IMG/VR virus record: IMGVR_UViG_3300024272_002272
Source of the DNA: a virus
Strand: one strand, 5' to 3'
DNA: 37,042 bases
Shown here one piece after another: positions 3,401-27,408 of the stretch; positions within the stretch are counted from its first letter, which is position 1; every line of letters starts with the position of its first letter. The translations under genes and the position numbers were made by a program. Under the pieces are notes generated by a model, which was not told where the DNA came from, did no database searches, and worked only from the letters and a program-made list of their open reading frames with translations.

Positions 3401-3756
3401 TATGCCCTCTCTTTATAGCTTAATAAAGTTTCACTATGAGATGAATAACAAAAAGGCTTAGAAGCTAAATAGATAGATATTTTACCCATACTAGATACCT
3501 CAACTATATCACCTTCTCGTACGTCTACGTTAGGGTTTAAAAATAATAAATGAGAAAAAGCTAAAGCACCTATCCCGTCAACGTTCATGGTTTGGATATC
3601 CTTTTTAGATAAAGCACATTTAGCATCTTCTACAATTATTATTTCTTTAGTTTCAGTTACTCCAGTATTAAGGTTTTTTATCTTTTCTTTTCTCTTAATA
3701 GTACATCTATCAAAGTAAGTACTTTCTAATATTTCTATATCAGTCATTAAAAACAC
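3400..3756 (-). CDS. Head closure / head-tail adaptor protein (call based on position)
   Basis: 118-aa ORF, translationally coupled within the head-tail joining block. Confidence 0.5.
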   Translation of the reverse strand: MFLMTDIEILESTYFDRCTIKRKEKIKNLNTGVTETKEIIIVEDAKCALSKKDIQTMNVDGIGALAFSHLLFLNPNVDVREGDIVEVSSMGKISIYLASKPFCYSSHSETLLSYKERA

Positions 3757-4091
3757 CTAACTTTTCTATATGTATTTAATATTTTCTTCTCGCTATCAGT
3801 TAAACCAACACCTGTTGAAGAAGTTTGGATAGCTTCGCCGACATTATATTCGATTTTAGTATCACCACGGCTTATAGACTTAATCTCTCCTGTATTTTGA
3901 GTGCCACCAGTTACAGTAGGTTTCATAATAGATACAACTTTATCTTCTATGAAACTTTCTAATCCTTTTGATAGCTCATTTACATTGCAATAGTCTACAA
4001 CCATAGTTTCAACCTTAGCTAAATATAATAAAATCATATTGTCATGCTTTTCATCAGTAATATTTAATAAAAGTTTTATATTTTCTAACAT
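3747..4091 (-). CDS. gp6-like head-tail connector protein (call based on position)
   Basis: 114-aa ORF immediately after the major capsid gene. Confidence 0.5.
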   Translation of the reverse strand: MLENIKLLLNITDEKHDNMILLYLAKVETMVVDYCNVNELSKGLESFIEDKVVSIMKPTVTGGTQNTGEIKSISRGDTKIEYNVGEAIQTSSTGVGLTDSEKKILNTYRKVRCF

Positions 4092-5966: not shown

Positions 5967-6860
5967 TCAATGAAAAGGAGGCATATTTACACCAATAACT
6001 GCATCCTTAACATTAAACACCTCCCCGTCTAAATCTTGACACATTTTAGAAGTTCTTTTATCTAAAGTAGCAAGAATTTCATATTTATCAACATCACATT
6101 CTACATAAGCCTTTTGAGAAGAAGTTTCCATAAAATATGAATGCTCTGTATGTATAAGCCTTAAACAGTTTTTATAATCTGCATCTAGCTTTTTACTTAA
6201 AGCTCTTGAAGTTTCTTTAACTCCTTTACCTTGTATAATCATTTGGGTTAATTCCTGGACCATAGCATTTTTAAATTTAGTTCTATTAATCCATAAATTT
6301 TGACTATAGCTTCTACCACTCCAAGGAAAGGCCAAAATTTCTTTTATCATGTCATTATCTATATATGAAAAAGCAGCTCCAACACCTATTGATTTGTGTA
6401 TATCGAATATAGTTTGGTAGTAATTATCTTTTATAGTGCTACTGTAAGTCATTGTAAGCCTTTTATTTGTGCTTTCATATACTTCATTAATGTATTTACC
6501 ACATTGATAAAACATTTCTTCTAAACGGGAAATTCTACTTTTCATAGCTAAAGTGTTTAACTCAAGTAAAAGCTCTTCATTTCCTGTTTCTTCTATAAGT
6601 TTCATATAGGACTTTAAATCCCTTTTAAATTCTCTAAATTCACTACTATTCAAATATTTTTTTGCATCAGAATAAGATAGGTTGTTATCCTTAGCATATT
6701 TATAAAATAAATTGCTAATTTCTTTACCTATCTCATTCATAGCTTTTTTATATTCATCAACTAATTCTTTTTCTATTTTTTTTAAATCTTTTAAGCCTTT
6801 TTTAAGTTTATAAGCTTCTCTTTTTTCCCAGTATTCTTTACTAGACAAATTATTCTTCAT
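5967..6860 (-). CDS. Head morphogenesis / minor head protein (SPP1 gp7 / Mu F family), ending at an in-frame TGA
   Basis: 297-aa ORF downstream of the portal and methylase genes. It ends ...VNMPPFH* in the middle of the family motif. Confidence 0.75.
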   Translation of the reverse strand: MKNNLSSKEYWEKREAYKLKKGLKDLKKIEKELVDEYKKAMNEIGKEISNLFYKYAKDNNLSYSDAKKYLNSSEFREFKRDLKSYMKLIEETGNEELLLELNTLAMKSRISRLEEMFYQCGKYINEVYESTNKRLTMTYSSTIKDNYYQTIFDIHKSIGVGAAFSYIDNDMIKEILAFPWSGRSYSQNLWINRTKFKNAMVQELTQMIIQGKGVKETSRALSKKLDADYKNCLRLIHTEHSYFMETSSQKAYVECDVDKYEILATLDKRTSKMCQDLDGEVFNVKDAVIGVNMPPFH

Positions 6861-7890
6861 TTATAGCACCTTCTTTATTTTGTGCATTAAAAAAAGCTTC
6901 CTCAATTCTTTTAGAAGCTATATCAAAATAATTATTATCAAGTTCTATGCCTATAAATTTTCTATTGGTATTCATACAAGCTACACCAGTTGAACCACTT
7001 CCCATAAAGCAATCTAAAATTATGTCACATTTGTTAGATGATGTTTTAATTATATACTCTAATAAATCTACTGGTTTAGGAGTTATATGCCCTTGCTTTT
7101 TAGCTACTTCGTAATTCATTACAGAGTGATGTTCTTTTAAATTATTAAACGTATACCTTAAATCTTCATATTCTTGTCTTAAATCTTCATATTCTTGTCT
7201 TAAATCTTCATATGACTTATCAAAATCTAACACTTTTGATAGTACCTCGTAGTGTTTTTTTGTTATAAACTCAAATTGCTTGTAATTCTTATCTAATTTA
7301 TGTTTTAATATTGTTTTAGCACTTGCTCTATTTCTTGCTATACCGTTATCTATGTATAAATCCACAAGTCTATCATCATTATACTTGAGCCCTTTTTCCA
7401 TCAGTTTACTATAAAGATATTCTTTTATGGGCTTATAATTATCTACATCTCGTTGTACTCTATTTAATCCAGCCTCATCTTGAAAAGTATAATACAAGCA
7501 GTACTCAGCCATTTGCTTGTAATTCCTTAATCCATTTACGGCACAATGACCATCTAAATACCCTTTTAAGCTACTTCTATCAAATCTTTTATTCCATACT
7601 AGCAACTGCTTAAAAACAAAATCAGTATTATTATTTATATAATTTTGTAGTTCCACTATCTGTAAAAAGTCATTATGGAAAAAATAAAAACTACCATTAC
7701 CTTTTAATACTCTTTGGCACTCTTTAAACACTTTCCCCATGAACTCCACATACTCATTTACTGTTTTCCATTTATCCCATTTTTTATCTTTTCCTATATT
7801 GTATGGTGGGTCTATTAGTACGAGATTAACAGACTTATCTTCTATATCTTTAAATATACTTAAGCAATCCCCATTATATAATTTATACAT
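6850..7890 (-). CDS. Orphan DNA methyltransferase (N6-adenine/N4-cytosine, beta class)
   Basis: DPPY motif (VLIDPPYNIG) near the N-terminus and FMGSGSTGVA (AdoMet motif) near the C-terminus. It overlaps both neighbouring genes. Confidence 0.8.
   Translation of the reverse strand: MYKLYNGDCLSIFKDIEDKSVNLVLIDPPYNIGKDKKWDKWKTVNEYVEFMGKVFKECQRVLKGNGSFYFFHNDFLQIVELQNYINNNTDFVFKQLLVWNKRFDRSSLKGYLDGHCAVNGLRNYKQMAEYCLYYTFQDEAGLNRVQRDVDNYKPIKEYLYSKLMEKGLKYNDDRLVDLYIDNGIARNRASAKTILKHKLDKNYKQFEFITKKHYEVLSKVLDFDKSYEDLRQEYEDLRQEYEDLRYTFNNLKEHHSVMNYEVAKKQGHITPKPVDLLEYIIKTSSNKCDIILDCFMGSGSTGVACMNTNRKFIGIELDNNYFDIASKRIEEAFFNAQNKEGAINEE
7157..7213. repeat. 21-bp in-frame tandem repeat (2.7 copies) inside the methyltransferase gene
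   Basis: cttaaatcttcatattcttgt occurs at 7157-7177 and 7178-7198, with a partial copy at 7199-7213. It encodes EDLRQEYEDLRQEYEDLR. Confidence 0.9.
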
Positions 7891-9196
7891 TTATATCACC
7901 TAATTCAGAATAACTATCCTCATATAAAGAGTTAGCTTCATTCTTTTTTCTTTCTAATTCACTTGCTACATCATCAACATAAGGAGATAAAGCTAATACA
8001 GTTTCTTCTGATAATATACCTGTTAATTTTTGCATAGTATCAGCAATTTCAACTGCATTAAATGGTTTATTTCTAGTGAATATAGGTTGAATTTCCATGT
8101 AACTCATTTCACTATTAGTTTTTATTTTTAAGAAGTTACACATAAGTTCTAATCTTCTTAATAAACCTTTTTTAAACTTAGCTTCTTTAACTCCTACTAA
8201 ATTTTCTAAGGCCATTAATTTATAAGATAATGCAACTCCACTAGAATTATTAGAAAACTCACTATCATTCATATTAGGTACACAAGAAAACCTATGTATA
8301 TCATTATCTAATCTGTTTTTATAGTTTTCTAAAGCACTATCTTGGATATTCTTTATAAGATATTCGGCTTTGCCTTCATTGTCTACAAAGTTTATTATGT
8401 TTTGATTTTCTATATCTTTAGCACTTTCTTCATCCATTAAATATCCACTTATAACTAGATAAGCATGAGTAAAGCTTTCAAAGTCATTAGCACTATCGGA
8501 TTGAGTTTTATCATAAGCATCAATTAGTGGCTTAATTTTTTCAAAGTCCCCATATCTTTCATCATTATTTATGTATACTGAAACTGGTACATCTAAAAAA
8601 TAATGTGGCACTTGGTTCACAAATCTTATTGAATCTTCTTCTTTTACATAGTAGGTTATATTATTCTTATCATAAACCTCAATATGAGTTATAGTATCTT
8701 CAGTATCTATTAATTTTTCATCATAATATCTTATAGCAAATATAATATTTTCTTGAAGTGTATTATCATATGCTACTATACATTCACTAGGATCAATAGA
8801 AGCAAATCTAATATTTGTATCTTCATCAACATACATTATCTCTATACCATAACCACATATAGAAGCATTTTTAGCTAAAGTAGTATTATTATCTGCTTCA
8901 TCATTGTAAACTAATAATTCTTTTATAGTTTCAAAGTTTTCTATGTTAACATAAGATACAGGCTTACCTAAAAAATACCCAACTGCCGTATTTGTGATAT
9001 AACTTGCATAAGGGTTAGATATTTTATTTTTAGGTTTATTTCCGTTGTTATATTCTCTATAAACTATATCATTATTGTTATTGTAATAATCTTTTAATTT
9101 ATTAATTCTTTTAGCTTCTTCTTTGTGAAGCTCAAGCACATATTTAACTACATCTACTGTCATTTCTGTATCTTTATTAAGTTTAATTTTTCTCAT
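7883..9196 (-). CDS. Portal protein (SPP1 gp6-like)
   Basis: 437-aa ORF immediately after the large terminase gene. Size and synteny fit a portal. Confidence 0.8.
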   Translation of the reverse strand: MRKIKLNKDTEMTVDVVKYVLELHKEEAKRINKLKDYYNNNNDIVYREYNNGNKPKNKISNPYASYITNTAVGYFLGKPVSYVNIENFETIKELLVYNDEADNNTTLAKNASICGYGIEIMYVDEDTNIRFASIDPSECIVAYDNTLQENIIFAIRYYDEKLIDTEDTITHIEVYDKNNITYYVKEEDSIRFVNQVPHYFLDVPVSVYINNDERYGDFEKIKPLIDAYDKTQSDSANDFESFTHAYLVISGYLMDEESAKDIENQNIINFVDNEGKAEYLIKNIQDSALENYKNRLDNDIHRFSCVPNMNDSEFSNNSSGVALSYKLMALENLVGVKEAKFKKGLLRRLELMCNFLKIKTNSEMSYMEIQPIFTRNKPFNAVEIADTMQKLTGILSEETVLALSPYVDDVASELERKKNEANSLYEDSYSELGDINV

Positions 9197-14401: not shown

Positions 14402-14427
14402 AAAAAAGACTAGGATTAACCTAGTCT
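14402..14427 (-). terminator. Rho-independent terminator of the cas12f-like gene
   Basis: Minus sense: AGACUAGG-UUAAU-CCUAGUCU followed by UUUUU. The stem overlaps the TAG stop codon. Confidence 0.6.
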
Positions 14428-15634
14428 ATTTAATAAAATCTTCACTTCTAGCAATATTTATACTTGCATTATGGTCTGCATTTAATTCAAAACCACATTT
14501 AGTACATTTAAACTTTTCTTGAGTTTGCCTATTTTCTTTATCTATATGCCCACACTTACTGCAAGTTTGACTTGTGTAAGCTGGATTAACATATCTCACT
14601 TTTATACCTATTCTATTTGCTTTATACTCCACCATTCTTTGAAGTTCATAATAACTCCAATTCCTTAGTATACTATCATTGAAACCATCTTTAGTTAATT
14701 TCTCCATATTAATATATTGGCATTTATATTTTTTAGCAAATTCAATTATTCTTTTACTTATCATGTGGTTATATGTTTTAGCAAAATTCCTCTCACATTC
14801 ACTTAATCTATTTAGATTTTTTAATTTTTTACCTCTACCCTTGCCACCTTTGACATTTTTTAATTGTTGTTGCGTTCTATTCCTTCTATCTTGGTATTGT
14901 TTACGTTGCTTTATAAGTTCTAGTGCTTCTCCTATATGTTCTCTTTTGTGGGTATCATCATTTAAGCACACATAAGCTGGATATTTAACTCCTAAATCAA
15001 CGCCTAAAACCCTGCCTTCTATAAATAATTCTTCTTGTTTAAATGGTATATCTAAGGTTAAATTAAGTATTAAATTATTATTTTTATCAAATTCCAAACT
15101 ACTTTGCATTACTTTATATTCTTTATTTAATATCTTCTGTAATGTATGTTGAAGTTCTAAAGTATTTTCTTTTCTAGCATTAAATACAACTTTGAAAATT
15201 ATTTTATTTACCCACTTTATAAGTATTTCTCCGTCTTGTTCATAAAATGTTAAATTTCTACCTCTAGTCATTAATGGAAAGTTTCTTTTATAGTTTATAG
15301 AACTTCTTTCGCCTTTAGCTAAACCATTTTTTAAAGATGTGCTAAAATCTTTTTTCACTTTTTGAGTTACTGCTGATAAGGTGTCTATTCCCTTTCCTAA
15401 CTCTAAGTCTTTAAATATAGGATTAGAATTTTTAAAATTCTTTTGATGTTCTTTAAAACCTTCTGATTTTATATCTCTATTGTTTGCAAGATAACCAGTC
15501 ATTATATACCCCATACCTAAATTAAGTGCTTGATACTGTGCATATTGGCTATCTCTTATAAATTTATATTGTTGCTTTCTTAGTTCTTCATTTTCATTCA
15601 CTATTATTAATTTTAATTTTCTAACAGTAATCAT
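14426..15634 (-). CDS. cas12f: Miniature type V effector, Cas12f (type V-F)/TnpB-like RuvC nuclease, 402 aa
   Basis: RuvC-I GVD(213)LGV, RuvC-II INME(311)KL, RuvC-III NAD(387)HNASINIA, and a CxxC...CxxC zinc finger (C358/C361/C377/C380). From memory, blocks such as INYKRNFPL, GGKGRGKK...NF..T.NH and NWSYYELQ...YKA...GIKV...P.YTSQ.CS.CG are collinear with AsCas12f (422 aa). The ATG at 15634 has a GGAAAGGA RBS. It is adjacent to a CRISPR array. Confidence 0.8.
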   Translation of the reverse strand: MITVRKLKLIIVNENEELRKQQYKFIRDSQYAQYQALNLGMGYIMTGYLANNRDIKSEGFKEHQKNFKNSNPIFKDLELGKGIDTLSAVTQKVKKDFSTSLKNGLAKGERSSINYKRNFPLMTRGRNLTFYEQDGEILIKWVNKIIFKVVFNARKENTLELQHTLQKILNKEYKVMQSSLEFDKNNNLILNLTLDIPFKQEELFIEGRVLGVDLGVKYPAYVCLNDDTHKREHIGEALELIKQRKQYQDRRNRTQQQLKNVKGGKGRGKKLKNLNRLSECERNFAKTYNHMISKRIIEFAKKYKCQYINMEKLTKDGFNDSILRNWSYYELQRMVEYKANRIGIKVRYVNPAYTSQTCSKCGHIDKENRQTQEKFKCTKCGFELNADHNASINIARSEDFIK

Positions 15635-15650
15635 AATTTTAATCCTTTCC

Positions 15651-15677
15651 AATAAAAAAAGGTCATAAAGACCTTTT
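15651..15677 (-). terminator. AT-rich hairpin plus U-tract between the array and cas12f (a weak terminator or processing element)
   Basis: Minus sense: AAAAGGUC-UUUAU-GACCUUUU followed by UUUAUU. It lies 17 nt upstream of the cas12f ATG. Confidence 0.35.
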
Positions 15678-15719
15678 AAAAACACATAATTTATAAAACT
15701 ATACACAGAGTTGCGATAT

Positions 15720-16068
15720 GTTTACCTATCACATAGTTAATATAAAACCTTTTAATATTACTAAATCCTTTGCTTCTATCAAATTCACATACCACATAGC
15801 TAATATAAAACTAATAATTACTTTGATATAAAAGAAGTTGTTTACAAATTCACATACCACATAGTTAATATAAAACAGTTATTTTTTCAGTTAATTTTTC
15901 TTGTATTAATACGTTTACATACCACGTAGTTAATATAAAACAAGCCACTTATAAAACTTCTTAGAAGCTAAATAAAGTTTACATACCACGTAGTTAATAT
16001 AAAGCTCAATATAATGGCTCATATATATAATAAAAAAAGGAATTTACATACCACGCAATATTTAAAAC
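15720..16068 (-). CRISPR. CRISPR array, 6 repeats (29 nt; the last is 27 nt) and 5 spacers (34-36 nt)
   Basis: Repeats on the plus strand: 15720-15748 gtttacctatcacatagttaatataaaac; 15783-15811 and 15848-15876 attcacataccacatag(c/t)taatataaaac; 15913-15941 gtttacataccacgtagttaatataaaac; 15977-16005 the same but ending aagc; 16042-16068 atttacataccacgcaatatttaaaac. The strand was assigned because the reverse complement ends ...GTGGTATGTAAAC, like Cas12f repeats (...GTGGAGTGTGAAC in AsCas12f, from memory), and is co-oriented with the cas gene. Confidence 0.85.
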
Positions 16069-16165
16069 TATGTGATTTATCGAGTGTTATAAGTAGTGAG
16101 TTGGTCTTAACCTTCACATTTTACCTTATACCTCAACCTTCGGACAGTAAATTGCCCGTATGTGT
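16069..16165 (-). ncRNA. GC-enriched block abutting the array; candidate leader-proximal structured RNA or tracrRNA
   Basis: About 38% GC by hand count (37 of 97 nt), with much more AT-rich flanks. A TATAAT (minus sense) lies at 16190-16195 upstream. There is no ORF. I found no clear anti-repeat. Confidence 0.3.
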
Positions 16166-16234
16166 TTTTATTTAATTTTATATATTAATATTATATCCAA
16201 AATAAAAATAAGTATACTTGTAAGTATTGGCAAT

Positions 16235-16259
16235 AAAAAAAGCTACTTATTCAGTAGCT
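16235..16259 (-). terminator. Rho-independent terminator of ORF 16247..16444
   Basis: Minus sense: AGCUACU-GAAUA-AGUAGCU followed by UUUUUUAUU. It isolates the CRISPR cassette from upstream transcription. Confidence 0.6.
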
Positions 16260-22570: not shown

Positions 22571-23506
22571 CTATTGTTTTATATTATTCTTTAAAAGCTT
22601 ATCTATTTCATCTTCCTCTAAATACATTATTTGAGTTTCAATAATTCCGTTCTTATTTTTAACTTTACATCTACCATCTATTTTTATATCTTGTAAGTTT
22701 TGATTTTTGCCTATCAAGGTATTACTATCAGTTTCATCAAATGTTTTTAATCCTATAACTTGAGGGCAATTCATTTTACATTTACCAATTGTTTCTTTTG
22801 TTGCATCTTGCCCACCTAATATAAAATAAATGCCATATTTCCTGCATTTGCCCATTATTCTATGAAGTTCGCTTTTGCATATGCTATCAGTTGCAAACTG
22901 AACTAATTCATCAACTATAACAACTATATAACTCATTTTTTTATCATGCTTTTTATTATAATTTATTGCATTTCTACAATTAGTTTCATCAAATATTTCT
23001 GCTCTTTCTTTCATCTTATCTTCTAGTATTCTCACTATGTCTAAAAAGCCTTCTTTGTCTGTTGCCATTCTTTTAAAATGCTTATATCTTCTAAAATAAT
23101 ATATATCACTTTCAGTATAATCACACCCAAGCATAAAAACTTCATTCTCTGTATAGGTAAGCATTATATTAGTTATAATTACGTTTAATAAATTAGACTT
23201 TCCTGCTCCTGTCATTCCTCCGATTAATATATGCCCATCTAAAATATTTAAAACAACTTCATTGCCTTCTAAATCATATCCTATACATACTTTAATTCCT
23301 TCTTTTTCACCTTCTACAAAGCTATATTTTATAAAATCTTCATTGCTTTCTTTTTCATTTAATTCGGTTGGTATATATTCATATTTAATTATATTGTCTA
23401 CATCAATTTCTTTTTCTTTGTCTTTTGCAGATGAAATAATATTTAAACTGTAACCTATTGCCCCACTCATAACTCCAATTAAAAAGCTCTCTAAAAGCAT
23501 TGGCAC
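22571..23506 (-). CDS. FtsK/SpoIIIE-family ATPase with an N-terminal transmembrane segment
   Basis: Walker A ILIGGMTGAGKSN, Walker B YIVVIVDEL, and YGIYFILGGQ. The N-terminus LLESFLIGVMSGAIGYSL is hydrophobic. Confidence 0.7.
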   Translation of the reverse strand: MPMLLESFLIGVMSGAIGYSLNIISSAKDKEKEIDVDNIIKYEYIPTELNEKESNEDFIKYSFVEGEKEGIKVCIGYDLEGNEVVLNILDGHILIGGMTGAGKSNLLNVIITNIMLTYTENEVFMLGCDYTESDIYYFRRYKHFKRMATDKEGFLDIVRILEDKMKERAEIFDETNCRNAINYNKKHDKKMSYIVVIVDELVQFATDSICKSELHRIMGKCRKYGIYFILGGQDATKETIGKCKMNCPQVIGLKTFDETDSNTLIGKNQNLQDIKIDGRCKVKNKNGIIETQIMYLEEDEIDKLLKNNIKQ

Positions 23507-24419: not shown

Positions 24420-25385
24420 TTAATTAAATTTTAATTTATCTTCAACATATTTAACTACATCATCAGATAACAAGTCCGTCTTTTCAAATCCTACTCCACC
24501 ATTGGTTAAATCGTATTTAACTTCATTTCCACCATTAAAATTGCCTTCTATGTAATCCTTAATGGTTAATTTTAAGCCTTCCCCTACGTTTTTCAATGCT
24601 GAACTTATAATGTTTTCTGATAAATAGCTCATTGGCATATCTACACCAATTCCTTTTACATTGTCGGCTTCATTTATTGCTTCGATGATGCCCATGTTGC
24701 CACCACCTGTTGCCATGAATATTATATCTGAATTTGAATTAATCATTTGCTGGGCAACTATCTTAGCCTTAGAAGCATCAGTAAATGAGTTTATATATTG
24801 CTTTAATACTTTTACATTAGGATTAACTTCTTTTGCCCCCTCTATATAACCTTCAAAGAATGGAGTTAATGAAGGTATATCGAATCCCCCTATGCAAGAT
24901 ATAACATTAGTTTCAGTCATTTTACCTGCAATTAATCCAACTAAATATCCTGCCTCTTTCTCGTTGAATGTTATAGGTCTTACATTCTTAGGAATTTCTT
25001 TCCCAGCTTCATATGATGAATCTATCATTACAAAATCTTGATTTGGGTAAGATTCTACTGCTTCTTTTATTGCATCTGATACTTGGAAGCCTACACCAAC
25101 AATTAAATCTGTATCTCTATCTATAAAAGTTTCTATATTTGGAGTATAGTCTGCATCACTTTGACTTTCTAAATATGAAACCTCTACACCATATTCTTCT
25201 TGTGCTTTTAATGCCCCTTCCCATGCAGATTGATTAAAGCTTTCATCATTTACCCCACCGACTGAAAGGACTAATCCTACCTTATAATTTTCTTTTTCTG
25301 TACTTGCATTATCTTTTTTAGCACATCCCCATGCACCTACTGCAACAACAGTAGACAATAATAATACTTTAACTTTTTTTATCAT
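24420..25385 (-). CDS. BMP-family (PnrA/Med-like) substrate-binding lipoprotein
   Basis: Signal peptide with a lipobox-like VGAWGC. The body (VGLVLSVGGVNDESFNQSAWEGA...GVGF...) resembles basic membrane protein / nucleoside-binding ABC substrate-binding proteins. Confidence 0.7.
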   Translation of the reverse strand: MIKKVKVLLLSTVVAVGAWGCAKKDNASTEKENYKVGLVLSVGGVNDESFNQSAWEGALKAQEEYGVEVSYLESQSDADYTPNIETFIDRDTDLIVGVGFQVSDAIKEAVESYPNQDFVMIDSSYEAGKEIPKNVRPITFNEKEAGYLVGLIAGKMTETNVISCIGGFDIPSLTPFFEGYIEGAKEVNPNVKVLKQYINSFTDASKAKIVAQQMINSNSDIIFMATGGGNMGIIEAINEADNVKGIGVDMPMSYLSENIISSALKNVGEGLKLTIKDYIEGNFNGGNEVKYDLTNGGVGFEKTDLLSDDVVKYVEDKLKFN

Positions 25386-26472: not shown

Positions 26473-27408
26473 TTATGAGTTATGCCAATTCCACTTTTGT
26501 TTTATTTTAAACTCAATTTCTTCATCGGTTAACTCTTTTACACTTTTATGCTCTCCATTTATTTCAACCACACTATCTGCCATAAATATTGTGCTTTCTT
26601 TTTTATTGTTTTTACTCTTATTAACATCCCCATACTTATAAGCCATTCTTAAAGCTTTTATACCATGAGAATTATTAACTTCACATATAGTTAAAGCTTC
26701 TTTTAATTTATCTATATCAGTAAATTCTTCTTCACAATCTTTTAAATCTTCTTTTTTAATATTTACACAACTTTTATTAATAATTTTTACCACTTCACTT
26801 TTGGGAATAGTTTCCATATTTTCTTTTGATTTTTTAGTATCTTTTTTATTGTTTTGTGGTATACTGTTATTATCAAAATTATTTTTATTTTCGGCATTAG
26901 CTTCTACTTCGGCAAAAGTAGAGGCTTTTTTATTTTCATCTTCTTTTATTTCTTCAACATTCTCTACTTCCTCAACTATTTTTATGTTTGGTAAAAGCTT
27001 ATATCCTTCTAGTGCATAACCTAATTTTCCTAAATCAGTTTGAACCTTAACTAAATCAACTCTATACTGTAGGGTTTTATCCCATTTATACTTTGGATTA
27101 TTTCTTTTATTTAAATATCCTGCTTCTACTAATTGTTTAATGTATTTACCTATTGTGGCTTTACTCATTCCCACCATTAATTCATCATTTAATTCTTCTG
27201 CCGTTTTATATATCCAGCCTTTACTTTCTTCTATCGAAACTTCTATTTCCTCTTTTATGGCTCTTTCTTTTTCTTCTTGGATGTACTTATCAGTGTCTTT
27301 CATTCTTTCAGTCCAATAAATAAACTGGTTTAATATTAATGCAGGTCTGTAATCTCCTGTAAGTTCAACTAATTCCTGTTTTATAACAACTCTTTTTAGC
27401 TTATTCAT
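26473..27408 (-). CDS. Winged-helix DNA-binding protein; candidate plasmid-type replication initiator
   Basis: The N-terminus ...ALILNQFIYWTERM...GWIYKTAEELNDELMVGMSKATIGKYIKQLVEAGYL resembles the wHTH of Firmicute Rep/DnaD-N-like proteins. It lies downstream of iterons and DnaA boxes. Confidence 0.4.
   Translation of the reverse strand: MNKLKRVVIKQELVELTGDYRPALILNQFIYWTERMKDTDKYIQEEKERAIKEEIEVSIEESKGWIYKTAEELNDELMVGMSKATIGKYIKQLVEAGYLNKRNNPKYKWDKTLQYRVDLVKVQTDLGKLGYALEGYKLLPNIKIVEEVENVEEIKEDENKKASTFAEVEANAENKNNFDNNSIPQNNKKDTKKSKENMETIPKSEVVKIINKSCVNIKKEDLKDCEEEFTDIDKLKEALTICEVNNSHGIKALRMAYKYGDVNKSKNNKKESTIFMADSVVEINGEHKSVKELTDEEIEFKIKQKWNWHNS

Follow-up and report, generated by a model that had tools for sequence, protein, structure and literature searches.

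Does a small nuclease gene beside a short CRISPR array on a phage genome form a CRISPR-Cas system of its own, or is the gene a transposon-type nuclease and the array a dependent of the host? The question is raised by the IMG/VR virus record IMGVR_UViG_3300024272_002272, a stretch of 37,042 nucleotides (nt) that is called the window in the following. A first-pass annotation had marked in it a Cas12f/TnpB-like nuclease gene with an adjoining array. The present analysis favours, with a probability of roughly 0.7, a self-contained type V-F1 Cas12f interference module, which would be carried as a moron-like cassette on a ~37-kb contractile-tailed phage of a Clostridioides-like host. Two features missed by the first-pass annotation enter into this reading, a trans-activating CRISPR RNA (tracrRNA) gene next to the array and the host-type I-B nature of the repeats.

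The effector and its relatives

The open reading frame (ORF) at 14426..15634 on the minus strand, here called cas12f1, is real. In its longest mechanical form it opens with a GTG at 15706 (minus), and its stop codon occupies 14426-14428. Since the homologs and RhCas12f1, the type V-F1 protein of Ruminiclostridium herbifermentans, begin with MITVRKLK, the start was placed at the ATG at 15634, which gives 402 amino acids (aa) including the start. A ribosome-binding site, GGAAAGGA, was read from the sequence together with this ATG (15632..15650, minus), the start being backed by the homolog N-termini. The RuvC triad (D213/E311/D387) and the CxxC...CxxC zinc finger (C358/C361/C377/C380) stand exactly where the first-pass annotation had put them, and neither triad nor cysteines vary when RhCas12f1 is aligned with 119 homologs.

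Profile searches and comparisons with the sequences of solved structures agree with the label Cas12f/TnpB-like and favour Cas12f over TnpB. In a phmmer search of the PDB sequences the best match, over the full length, is chain A of 9nzp (415 aa, E=1e-120), which alignment and paper identify as RhCas12f1. The second is 8hr5 (497 aa, E=1e-115), a chain labelled 'Transposase' that we take to be CnCas12f1 of Clostridium novyi. CnCas12f1 also has a C-rich PAM (protospacer-adjacent motif). Its strong homology to the phage protein covers the N-terminal ~70 residues and residues 72-401; an insertion of ~80 aa in the N-terminal region of the 8hr5 protein is missing from phage Cas12f1. These two proteins, and not AsCas12f, with which the first-pass annotation had called the protein collinear, are the nearest relatives in this search. 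The remaining Cas12f structures follow at 1e-47 to 1e-25. Over its whole length of 399 positions the PADLOC Cas12f model PDLC01699 aligns with residues 1-402 (E=2e-143), the PADLOC Cas12u3 model matches with E=4e-134, and the Pfam family Cas12f1-like_TNB reaches 90.8 bits against a cutoff of 26.3.

Phage Cas12f1 and RhCas12f1 are collinear over their full length, share the RuvC triad and the zinc-finger residues and are 53.6% identical; the phage protein is 13 aa shorter (402 versus 415). RhCas12f1 is an active nuclease by experiment and recognises a 5'-NCCD PAM (PMC10090079, Kong et al. 2023). Its residues D77/R117/R119 contact both the PAM and a PAM-like element of the guide RNA, G49/G50/C57 (PMC13186708, Guan et al. 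2026). The counterparts in the phage protein, D84/R124/R126, are predicted to contact the PAM and are likewise invariant among the homologs; the ten residues of triad, zinc finger and PAM contact are unchanged in all 121 sequences compared. RhCas12f1 was described from a bacterial genome, whereas the present system is phage-carried and known from sequence.

The length of 402 aa is as first given, but its exceptional smallness was overstated: this size had already been covered by the typing hidden Markov models and by hundreds of metagenomic homologs of 401-402 aa. The identical 402-aa protein occurs on at least 23 contigs, mostly of 37-41 kb, from many samples. Among deposited phages no close homolog was found (the best protein match is 34% identical) and no DNA nearly identical to that of the cassette phage. 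Related genes, ~52% identical, lie on megaplasmids of Clostridium botulinum and C. sporogenes, not on phages.

An ordinary TnpB of the IS200/IS605 type, guided by an omega-RNA and placed beside the array by chance, would explain why public annotations label homologs 'TnpB family' or 'transposase', why the umbrella NCBIfam subfamily 'guided_TnpB' is passed (203.8 bits, cutoff 100) and why Pfam OrfB_IS605 gives a weak match of 23.6 bits, under its cutoff of 30.5. The models specific for TnpB stay far under their cutoffs, however (IS200_TnpB 69.3 versus 425 bits, IS607_TnpB 51 versus 350 bits), and TnpB structures match at 1e-7 to 1e-11 as against 1e-120 for RhCas12f1. No tnpA was found among the window ORFs. 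The region 3' of the gene holds a terminator and then an unrelated gene instead of a conserved omega-RNA-like block, and the conserved RNA lies upstream of the gene, next to the array. Furthermore, tracrRNA and array accompany every full-length gene whose adjoining DNA is covered, across different genomic backgrounds. All type V-F1 features that sequence can reveal are present and those of a transposon TnpB are missing (the search for LE/RE ends being short of exhaustive), so that the effector is assigned by homology to bona fide type V-F1 (formerly V-U3) Cas12f; a chance neighbourhood of TnpB and array appears highly improbable.

The tracrRNA gene and its fusion to the array

About 100 nt directly upstream of the array, on the strand of the gene, are conserved in related loci (numbered with an L below), where they occur on either side of the array. 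This stretch aligns with the published tracrRNA of RhCas12f1 (Supplementary Data 1, PMC10090079). Joint folding of six sequences with RNAalifold gave a first stem with an invariant ATTTA loop and a long second stem, with compensatory double changes in 18 of the 28 pairs. A covariance model built from this alignment was then run on the related loci. Its sole match in the window is the tracrRNA gene at 16068..16165 on the minus strand (103 bits, E=1e-18). Exactly one co-oriented tracrRNA is present in each locus that has a full-length homolog and covered DNA upstream of the array (the window, L001-L012, L022, L025, L043 and L044). The model found no match in the short contig L034, whose sequence begins inside the array, nor in 20+ loci of Clostridioides difficile that have an array only. 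In L002 two diverged copies (7274-7371 and 8036-8133) were seen on either side of one array, one after the gene and followed by a leader of the I-B type, the other abutting the last repeat.

Among 12 distinct tracrRNA sequences 96.5% of the cells hold standard pairs, versus 36-44% when the partners are slid by 1-3 columns, and changes on both sides occur in 20 of the 28 pairs. Frequent G-U pairs in this covariation place the tracrRNA on the minus strand. The loop of stem 1 (16141-16158), ATTTAC, is complementary to the 3' GTAAAT of the repeat. The long stem 2 (16080-16136) includes an invariant GGU...ACC 'PAM-mimic' hairpin at 16103-16112, whose helix corresponds to G49/G50/C57 of the RhCas12f1 guide. 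The anti-repeat ATCACATAGTT at 16066-16076 extends 2 nt beyond the model match, into the junction described below, and is the complement of the central part of the repeat (AACTAYGTGGT). Its sequence changes together with that of the local repeat: CACATAG goes with CTATGTGG in the window and L001, and CACTTAG with CTAAGTGG in L003 and L012.

With the tracrRNA of RhCas12f1 this RNA shares the ATTTA loop of stem 1, the long stem 2, the GG...CC PAM-mimic hairpin and the motif CACTCG.AAA, and the repeats belong to the same family with the same 3' handle (TGGAATGTAAAT versus GTGGTATGTAAAC). In contrast to its relative it measures ~98 instead of 124 nt, has no stem-loop ahead of the anti-repeat, pairs with the repeat middle and not with TGGAATG, and is fused to the array through a deletion of the leader.

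The array itself (15720..16005, minus) was described correctly as co-oriented with the gene, 85 nt upstream of its ATG and composed of 29-nt repeats with unique spacers of 34-36 nt. Five true repeats (15720-15748, 15783-15811, 15848-15876, 15913-15941 and 15977-16005; consensus GTTTTATATTAACTAYGTGGTATGTAAAC) enclose the four spacers S1-S4. Each repeat scores 37-44 bits with the Rfam family CRISPR-DR14, slightly under the cutoff of 45 bits, and four independent assemblies of the phage, from four samples, all have the same array. The count of six repeats does not stand, as the 'sixth', at 16042-16070, has no match to the Rfam CRISPR-DR families. When the cassette is aligned with those of L043 and L044, in which the leader is kept, a deletion of ~105 nt becomes apparent in the window, common to L001. 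The supposed repeat is therefore a chimera of leader and half-repeat, and the I-B-type leader (discussed below) is lost. At this junction, named R0 (16039..16067, minus), the leader remnant TTTTAAATATTGC (16055-16067), which is the first 13 nt past the anti-repeat, is joined to the 3' half of a repeat, GTGGTATGTAAAT (16042-16054). In agreement with the loss, the leader motifs TGCAGTG[AT]GCGA and CACTGCA are absent throughout the window. Two other views of R0 were rejected, a degenerate terminal repeat by the L043/L044 alignment and a reverse-strand anti-repeat by this alignment together with the G-U pairs that put the tracrRNA on the minus strand.

From the deletion it is proposed that the spacer set is frozen and that the tracrRNA is fused to the first CRISPR RNA (crRNA) unit. 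One strand carries in series the scaffold, the anti-repeat, a 13-nt loop, a 13-nt repeat handle and the 36-nt spacer-like segment S0 (16006..16041, minus), which follows the chimeric half-repeat and would guide the fused unit. This layout is that of an engineered single-guide RNA (sgRNA), and the minimum-free-energy fold contains the scaffold stems and a hairpin joining the anti-repeat to the half-repeat. A target that matches S0 and has a proper PAM did not turn up. In L001, whose protein is 89% identical, the gene, the tracrRNA and an array of 11 repeats are intact despite the common deletion, and the leaderless configuration has thus been kept over considerable divergence. A comparable arrangement is the long tracrRNA of Streptococcus pyogenes, reportedly presented by Workman and colleagues in Cell in 2021, a natural single-guide form that is said to autoregulate the cas promoter with Cas9. 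There, too, tracr and a repeat-derived segment stand on one molecule that could act as a single guide; the fusion in the window differs in belonging to a Cas12f system and in having apparently arisen by deletion. A 12-mer, CCTTTTTTTATT (minus), recurs at 15651-15662, 16029-16040 and 16232-16243, at the start of S0 and in the T-tails of two cassette terminators. The match between S0 and the terminator tail upstream of cas12f1 was considered as an autoregulatory target and rejected, being a low-complexity T-run with no CCN flank, and the recurrence is probably coincidental.

Type I-B repeats, targets and competing explanations

The repeats are of a host type. In a collection of species-representative genomes the pattern GTTTTATATTAACTANGTGGTATGTAAA was found in 24 stretches, nearly all from C. 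difficile, and most of these are arrays with no cas12f nearby. A text search of the literature did not find the repeat string; the I-B repeat was located instead in a study of C. difficile 630, whose type I-B array CR11 has the repeat GTTTTAGATTAACTATATGGAATGTAAAT, the PAM CCW, 37-nt spacers and a leader sequence (PMC7064742). The window array belongs to the same 29-nt repeat family (match to a 28-nt pattern) in the same orientation, and C. difficile I-B arrays further resemble the cassette family in spacers of ~36-37 nt, in the PAM CCN/CCW and in a leader homologous to that of the relatives (PMC7064742). Most relatives have ~167-200 nt between tracrRNA and array. This stretch aligns with the CR11 leader at TGCAGTG(A/T)GCGA, CTTGAAAT, CACTGCA and TT.GG before the first repeat, and such a leader is present in L002, L003, L006, L043 and L044.

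Arrays of mixed kind also occur in this family. The C. difficile prophage contig L008 carries three arrays within 7 kb (1203-2021, 3775-4065 and 7200-7686) with three variants of one repeat family; the repeat of the first is identical to that of CR11, and only the third directly follows cas12f and tracr. In L003-L005, L011 and L012 the arrays (e.g. L004:4841-5538) are composites: repeats of the subtype ATTTCATATTAACTAAGTGG... lie towards the leader and those of the subtype GTTAACTATTAACTATGTGG... towards the gene, and the tracr anti-repeat fits the leader-side subtype better.

The absence of cas1, cas2, cas4 and tnpA noted in the first-pass annotation was borne out, and integrase families likewise have no match among the window ORFs. 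Five phage contigs of a sister lineage with identical tracrRNAs contain 39 distinct spacers, the few common ones being gene-proximal, as would be expected of polarised acquisition at the leader end. Within +/-6 kb of these cassettes, no ORF of 100 aa or more was matched by a cas1, cas2 or cas4 model. The host-type I-B repeats and the I-B-type leader in relatives suggest that spacers are acquired in trans by the I-B machinery of the host. That V-F1 systems borrow the I-B adaptation module was put forward in a 2024 preprint from co-occurrence and shared PAMs (bioRxiv 10.1101/2024.04.09.587696), and a report of 2023 described Cas12f genes in strains of C. difficile (PMC10806358).

The same observations could be read differently, namely as a host-dependent I-B phage array whose crRNAs are used by host Cas6 and Cascade/Cas3, with Cas12f redundant or sharing the array. 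Repeats that match those of C. difficile and occur in dozens of arrays with no nearby cas12f, the I-B-type leader of relatives and protospacers with the I-B PAM CCN are all in line with it, and PMC4173771 and PMC4556805 document prophage arrays of C. difficile, phage-borne like the present one and aimed at rival phages. These I-B arrays rely on Cas6, Cascade and Cas3 of the host and adjoin neither an effector gene nor a tracrRNA, whereas the window cassette has a Cas12f gene and a co-varying tracrRNA, and its I-B leader is deleted. A structured tracrRNA with a repeat-covarying anti-repeat, tied strictly to cas12f and missing from array-only loci, would be needless for a pure I-B array, and RhCas12f1 is active by experiment with exactly such a repeat handle (TGGAATGTAAAT). 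Use of the array by both Cas12f and I-B may well occur; only the exclusive I-B version is disfavoured, and the explanation is held to be unlikely.

Targets were sought for the whole family, locally with 508 spacers and by a search of deposited phages. For spacers of cas12f-linked arrays ten distinct protospacers were obtained; seven of them have a 5'-CCN flank and one has TCA, while in DNA of ~28% GC roughly 2% of positions would be expected to hold a CC dinucleotide. CCN resembles the NCCD PAM of RhCas12f1 and is the PAM common to this protein and to C. difficile I-B. The targets of the relatives lie in other cas12f-carrying phage contigs and, with 92-100% identity, in holin, tape-measure and baseplate-J/XkdT genes of known C. 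difficile phages. These matches support competition between elements as the probable role of the family.

In one case a Cas12f-linked array targets the cas12f of another element. In L022, on the C. difficile chromosome OX246690.1, the array adjoins a longer cas12f homolog (44% identical), and one spacer of this array (minus-strand position 3725) agrees in 35 of 37 nt, with a CCT flank, with the cas12f gene of the prophage cassettes L006-L009 (L006/L007:7051-7087, L008:6698-6734, L009:4295-4331). Degenerate cassettes were seen in L013:720-1056 and L014:5817-6153. In these the tracr-like RNA gene is intact (107 bits), and ~90 nt further on stands all that is left of cas12f, its last 51 codons, with 92% identity to residues 352-402 of the window protein. 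The DNA between tracr and remnant in L013/L014 is matched, again with a CCT flank, by a spacer from the L002 phage array.

Under the favoured reading of a self-contained V-F1 module, a minus-strand transcript starting upstream of 16165 would comprise the ~98-nt tracrRNA and the five-repeat array and would probably end at 15677-15657. The anti-repeat AUCACAUAGUU would pair with the repeat middle AACUAYGUGGU, and the stem-1 loop AUUUAC with the repeat 3' GUAAAU; processing would then yield guides of repeat handle and spacer. A Cas12f homodimer, as suggested by RhCas12f1 and other Cas12f structures, would bind the tracrRNA:crRNA duplex, read a 5'-CCN PAM through D84/R124/R126 and cut matching double-stranded DNA at the single RuvC site D213/E311/D387. 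Competing phages and mobile elements would thereby be excluded from the same host cell. Spacers would be supplied in trans by the host I-B Cas1-Cas2-Cas4, which would select the same CCN PAM. Expression, processing, dimer formation, cleavage, the PAM of the phage protein, its role and adaptation in trans are what we infer from the comparisons above.

Several points weigh against this reading. Deposited phages, plasmids, IMG/VR and the JGI metagenomes yielded no protospacer for S0-S4, which makes targeting by the window array hypothetical: blastn of S0-S4 gave chance-level matches only (E=1) in deposited phages and a single chance match, to Buchnera, in the PLSDB plasmids; exact seeds of 22-26 nt from S1-S4 had 0 matches each in IMG/VR, as had CCN+S1 and CCN+S4 in the JGI metagenomes; and the window spacers have no local match in any fetched locus or in the phage itself. 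Conversely, no C. difficile spacer among those fetched matches the window phage. The leader is deleted, the five repeats have drifted so that each differs slightly from the others, and a terminator parts the array from cas12f1, for which no convincing promoter was found. The covariation alignment of 12 sequences (A2) had been fitted to the model, kinship among the tracrRNAs inflates the shuffle-based controls, and the folding energy of the single tracr-R0 sequence is unremarkable (z=-1.3). The host is deduced solely from repeat identity and GC content, and the same crRNAs could be used by the host type I-B Cascade instead or also.

Leader loss, repeat drift and the terminator between array and gene are also compatible with a decaying module. 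Such a relic, with an array that can no longer be updated, spacers that match nothing and loss ahead of it, would have its end state in the degenerate L013 and L014 cassettes, where only tracr and a C-terminal cas12f fragment are left. The missing targets for the cassette's own spacers and the lost leader are the reasons for which this explanation is retained, as a quite unlikely one. The cas12f1 ORF is nevertheless intact with all functional residues, the same protein recurs on the contigs from many samples mentioned above, all tracrRNA helices are retained and the deletion is shared with L001, where gene, tracr and array are intact.

A bolder combination, doubtful at present, is that in this lineage and L001 the deletion created a natural Cas12f single-guide RNA, and that portable cassettes share the I-B adaptation and crRNAs of the host. 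If true, scaffold, anti-repeat, leader-derived 13-nt loop, 13-nt handle and spacer would be one transcript, with the remaining array served in trans. Phages of Clostridioides-like hosts would then have plug-in Cas12f-tracr cassettes, and one array would arm two mechanistically different interference systems.

Genomic surroundings and significance

The window, which is JGI contig Ga0307249_10024247, encodes small and large terminase, an SPP1-type portal, Mu-F, capsid, tail sheath, tube, baseplate J, an amidase endolysin, ERF, DnaG/DnaB and SSB; no tRNAs were found in it. By this gene content it is a ~37-kb contractile-tailed phage. A 'siphovirus-type' label, given for the SPP1-type portal, was dropped, as the sheath, tube and baseplate genes show a contractile tail. 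GC content is ~25-31% throughout, and the cassette is therefore not compositionally distinct. Together with the repeats this suggests a low-GC, Clostridioides-like host.

The cassette lies, as had been noted, between replication genes and SSB, with the DnaG/DnaB primase-helicase gene on one side and the SSB gene on the other. Both bracketing terminators of the first-pass annotation exist, on the minus strand. One (14407..14427) follows right after the cas12f1 stop with an 8-bp stem and TTTTTTATATT, and the other (16241..16259), found in the terminator scan, belongs to the upstream phage operon and forms the 5' boundary of the cassette. A third had gone unreported: it stands between array and cas12f1 (15657..15677, minus), consists of an 8-bp stem and TTTATTGG and probably ends the tracr-array transcript. 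The scan gave 3 sites, with 0.4 expected from shuffles. Upstream of the tracrRNA a consensus match, TTGCCA-17-TATTTT (16205..16233, minus), is a candidate tracr-array promoter; promoter-like sites show no enrichment over shuffles.

Relatives at 83-90% identity occur in other backbones: that of L043 is a 63-kb element in which partition- and relaxase-like genes are combined with a myovirus module, and that of L044 is an SPbeta-like phage. Both have the order tracr, leader, array, gene. The cassette behaves as a mobile accessory module.

Further variable genes were seen in these genomes. An N6/N4 DNA methyltransferase gene (6850-7890, minus) lies between portal and Mu-F in the window and is also found in L015; its absence from the otherwise near-identical L016 marks it as an insertion that varies from isolate to isolate of this phage. 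Its ORF includes a perfect 21-nt tandem repeat of 2.7 copies, CTTAAATCTTCATATTCTTGT (7157-7213). A Bmp/periplasmic-binding-type lipoprotein gene at 24420-25385 (minus) has a parallel in the unrelated SPbeta-like phage L044 (13119-14078), there ~2 kb from the cas12f cassette, and may be another shared accessory gene. An FtsK/SpoIIIE-type ATPase ORF (22571-23506, minus) matches PADLOC 'mad8' (4e-14) and SspH (1e-12), probably through generic ATPase similarity; FtsK/SpoIIIE-like ORFs recur beside the cassettes of relatives (L043, sister lineage). A 311-aa ORF with no Pfam family (26473-27408, minus) occupies the region in which one might look for a lysogeny gene.

The system is one of a known family, virus-borne V-F1 effectors and the link between V-F1 and I-B having both been published. 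The novelty first seen in a virus-borne effector and array with no adaptation genes was overstated: V-F1/V-U3-like effectors beside arrays on viral contigs have been reported, and adaptation genes are almost always missing from phages that encode CRISPR systems (PMC12607003). Phages smaller than 200 kb seldom have a CRISPR system, and V-F shows an enrichment on plasmids (PMC11656645). Like Cas-phi/Cas12j, Cas-lambda and the viral V-F1/V-U3-like effectors (PMC12607003, PMC11656645), the window combines an effector with a small array on a phage genome, lacks cas1/cas2 and presumably serves in competition between elements. Cas-phi and Cas-lambda measure ~700-800 aa, do not require a tracrRNA and stem for the most part from huge phages, whereas the present effector has 402 aa, would depend on a tracrRNA and is found on an ordinary 37-kb phage with host I-B repeats.

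What this analysis adds is the mapped tracrRNA, the I-B leader homology and the variant with leader deletion and tracr fusion. The window holds a complete tracrRNA-dependent miniature Cas12f system on a phage of ordinary size, its three components mapped to the base. The 402-aa protein and the naturally short ~98-nt tracrRNA make a reasonable candidate for a compact editor with a C-rich PAM, of which many near-equivalents exist. The identical repeats, the homologous leader in relatives, the same CCN PAM and the polarised turnover of spacers in arrays that have no cas1/2/4 in their neighbourhood are evidence for the proposed use of host I-B adaptation by V-F1 systems. The leader-deletion variant, finally, offers a natural experiment on a cassette that would no longer be able to acquire spacers, and possibly a natural sgRNA.

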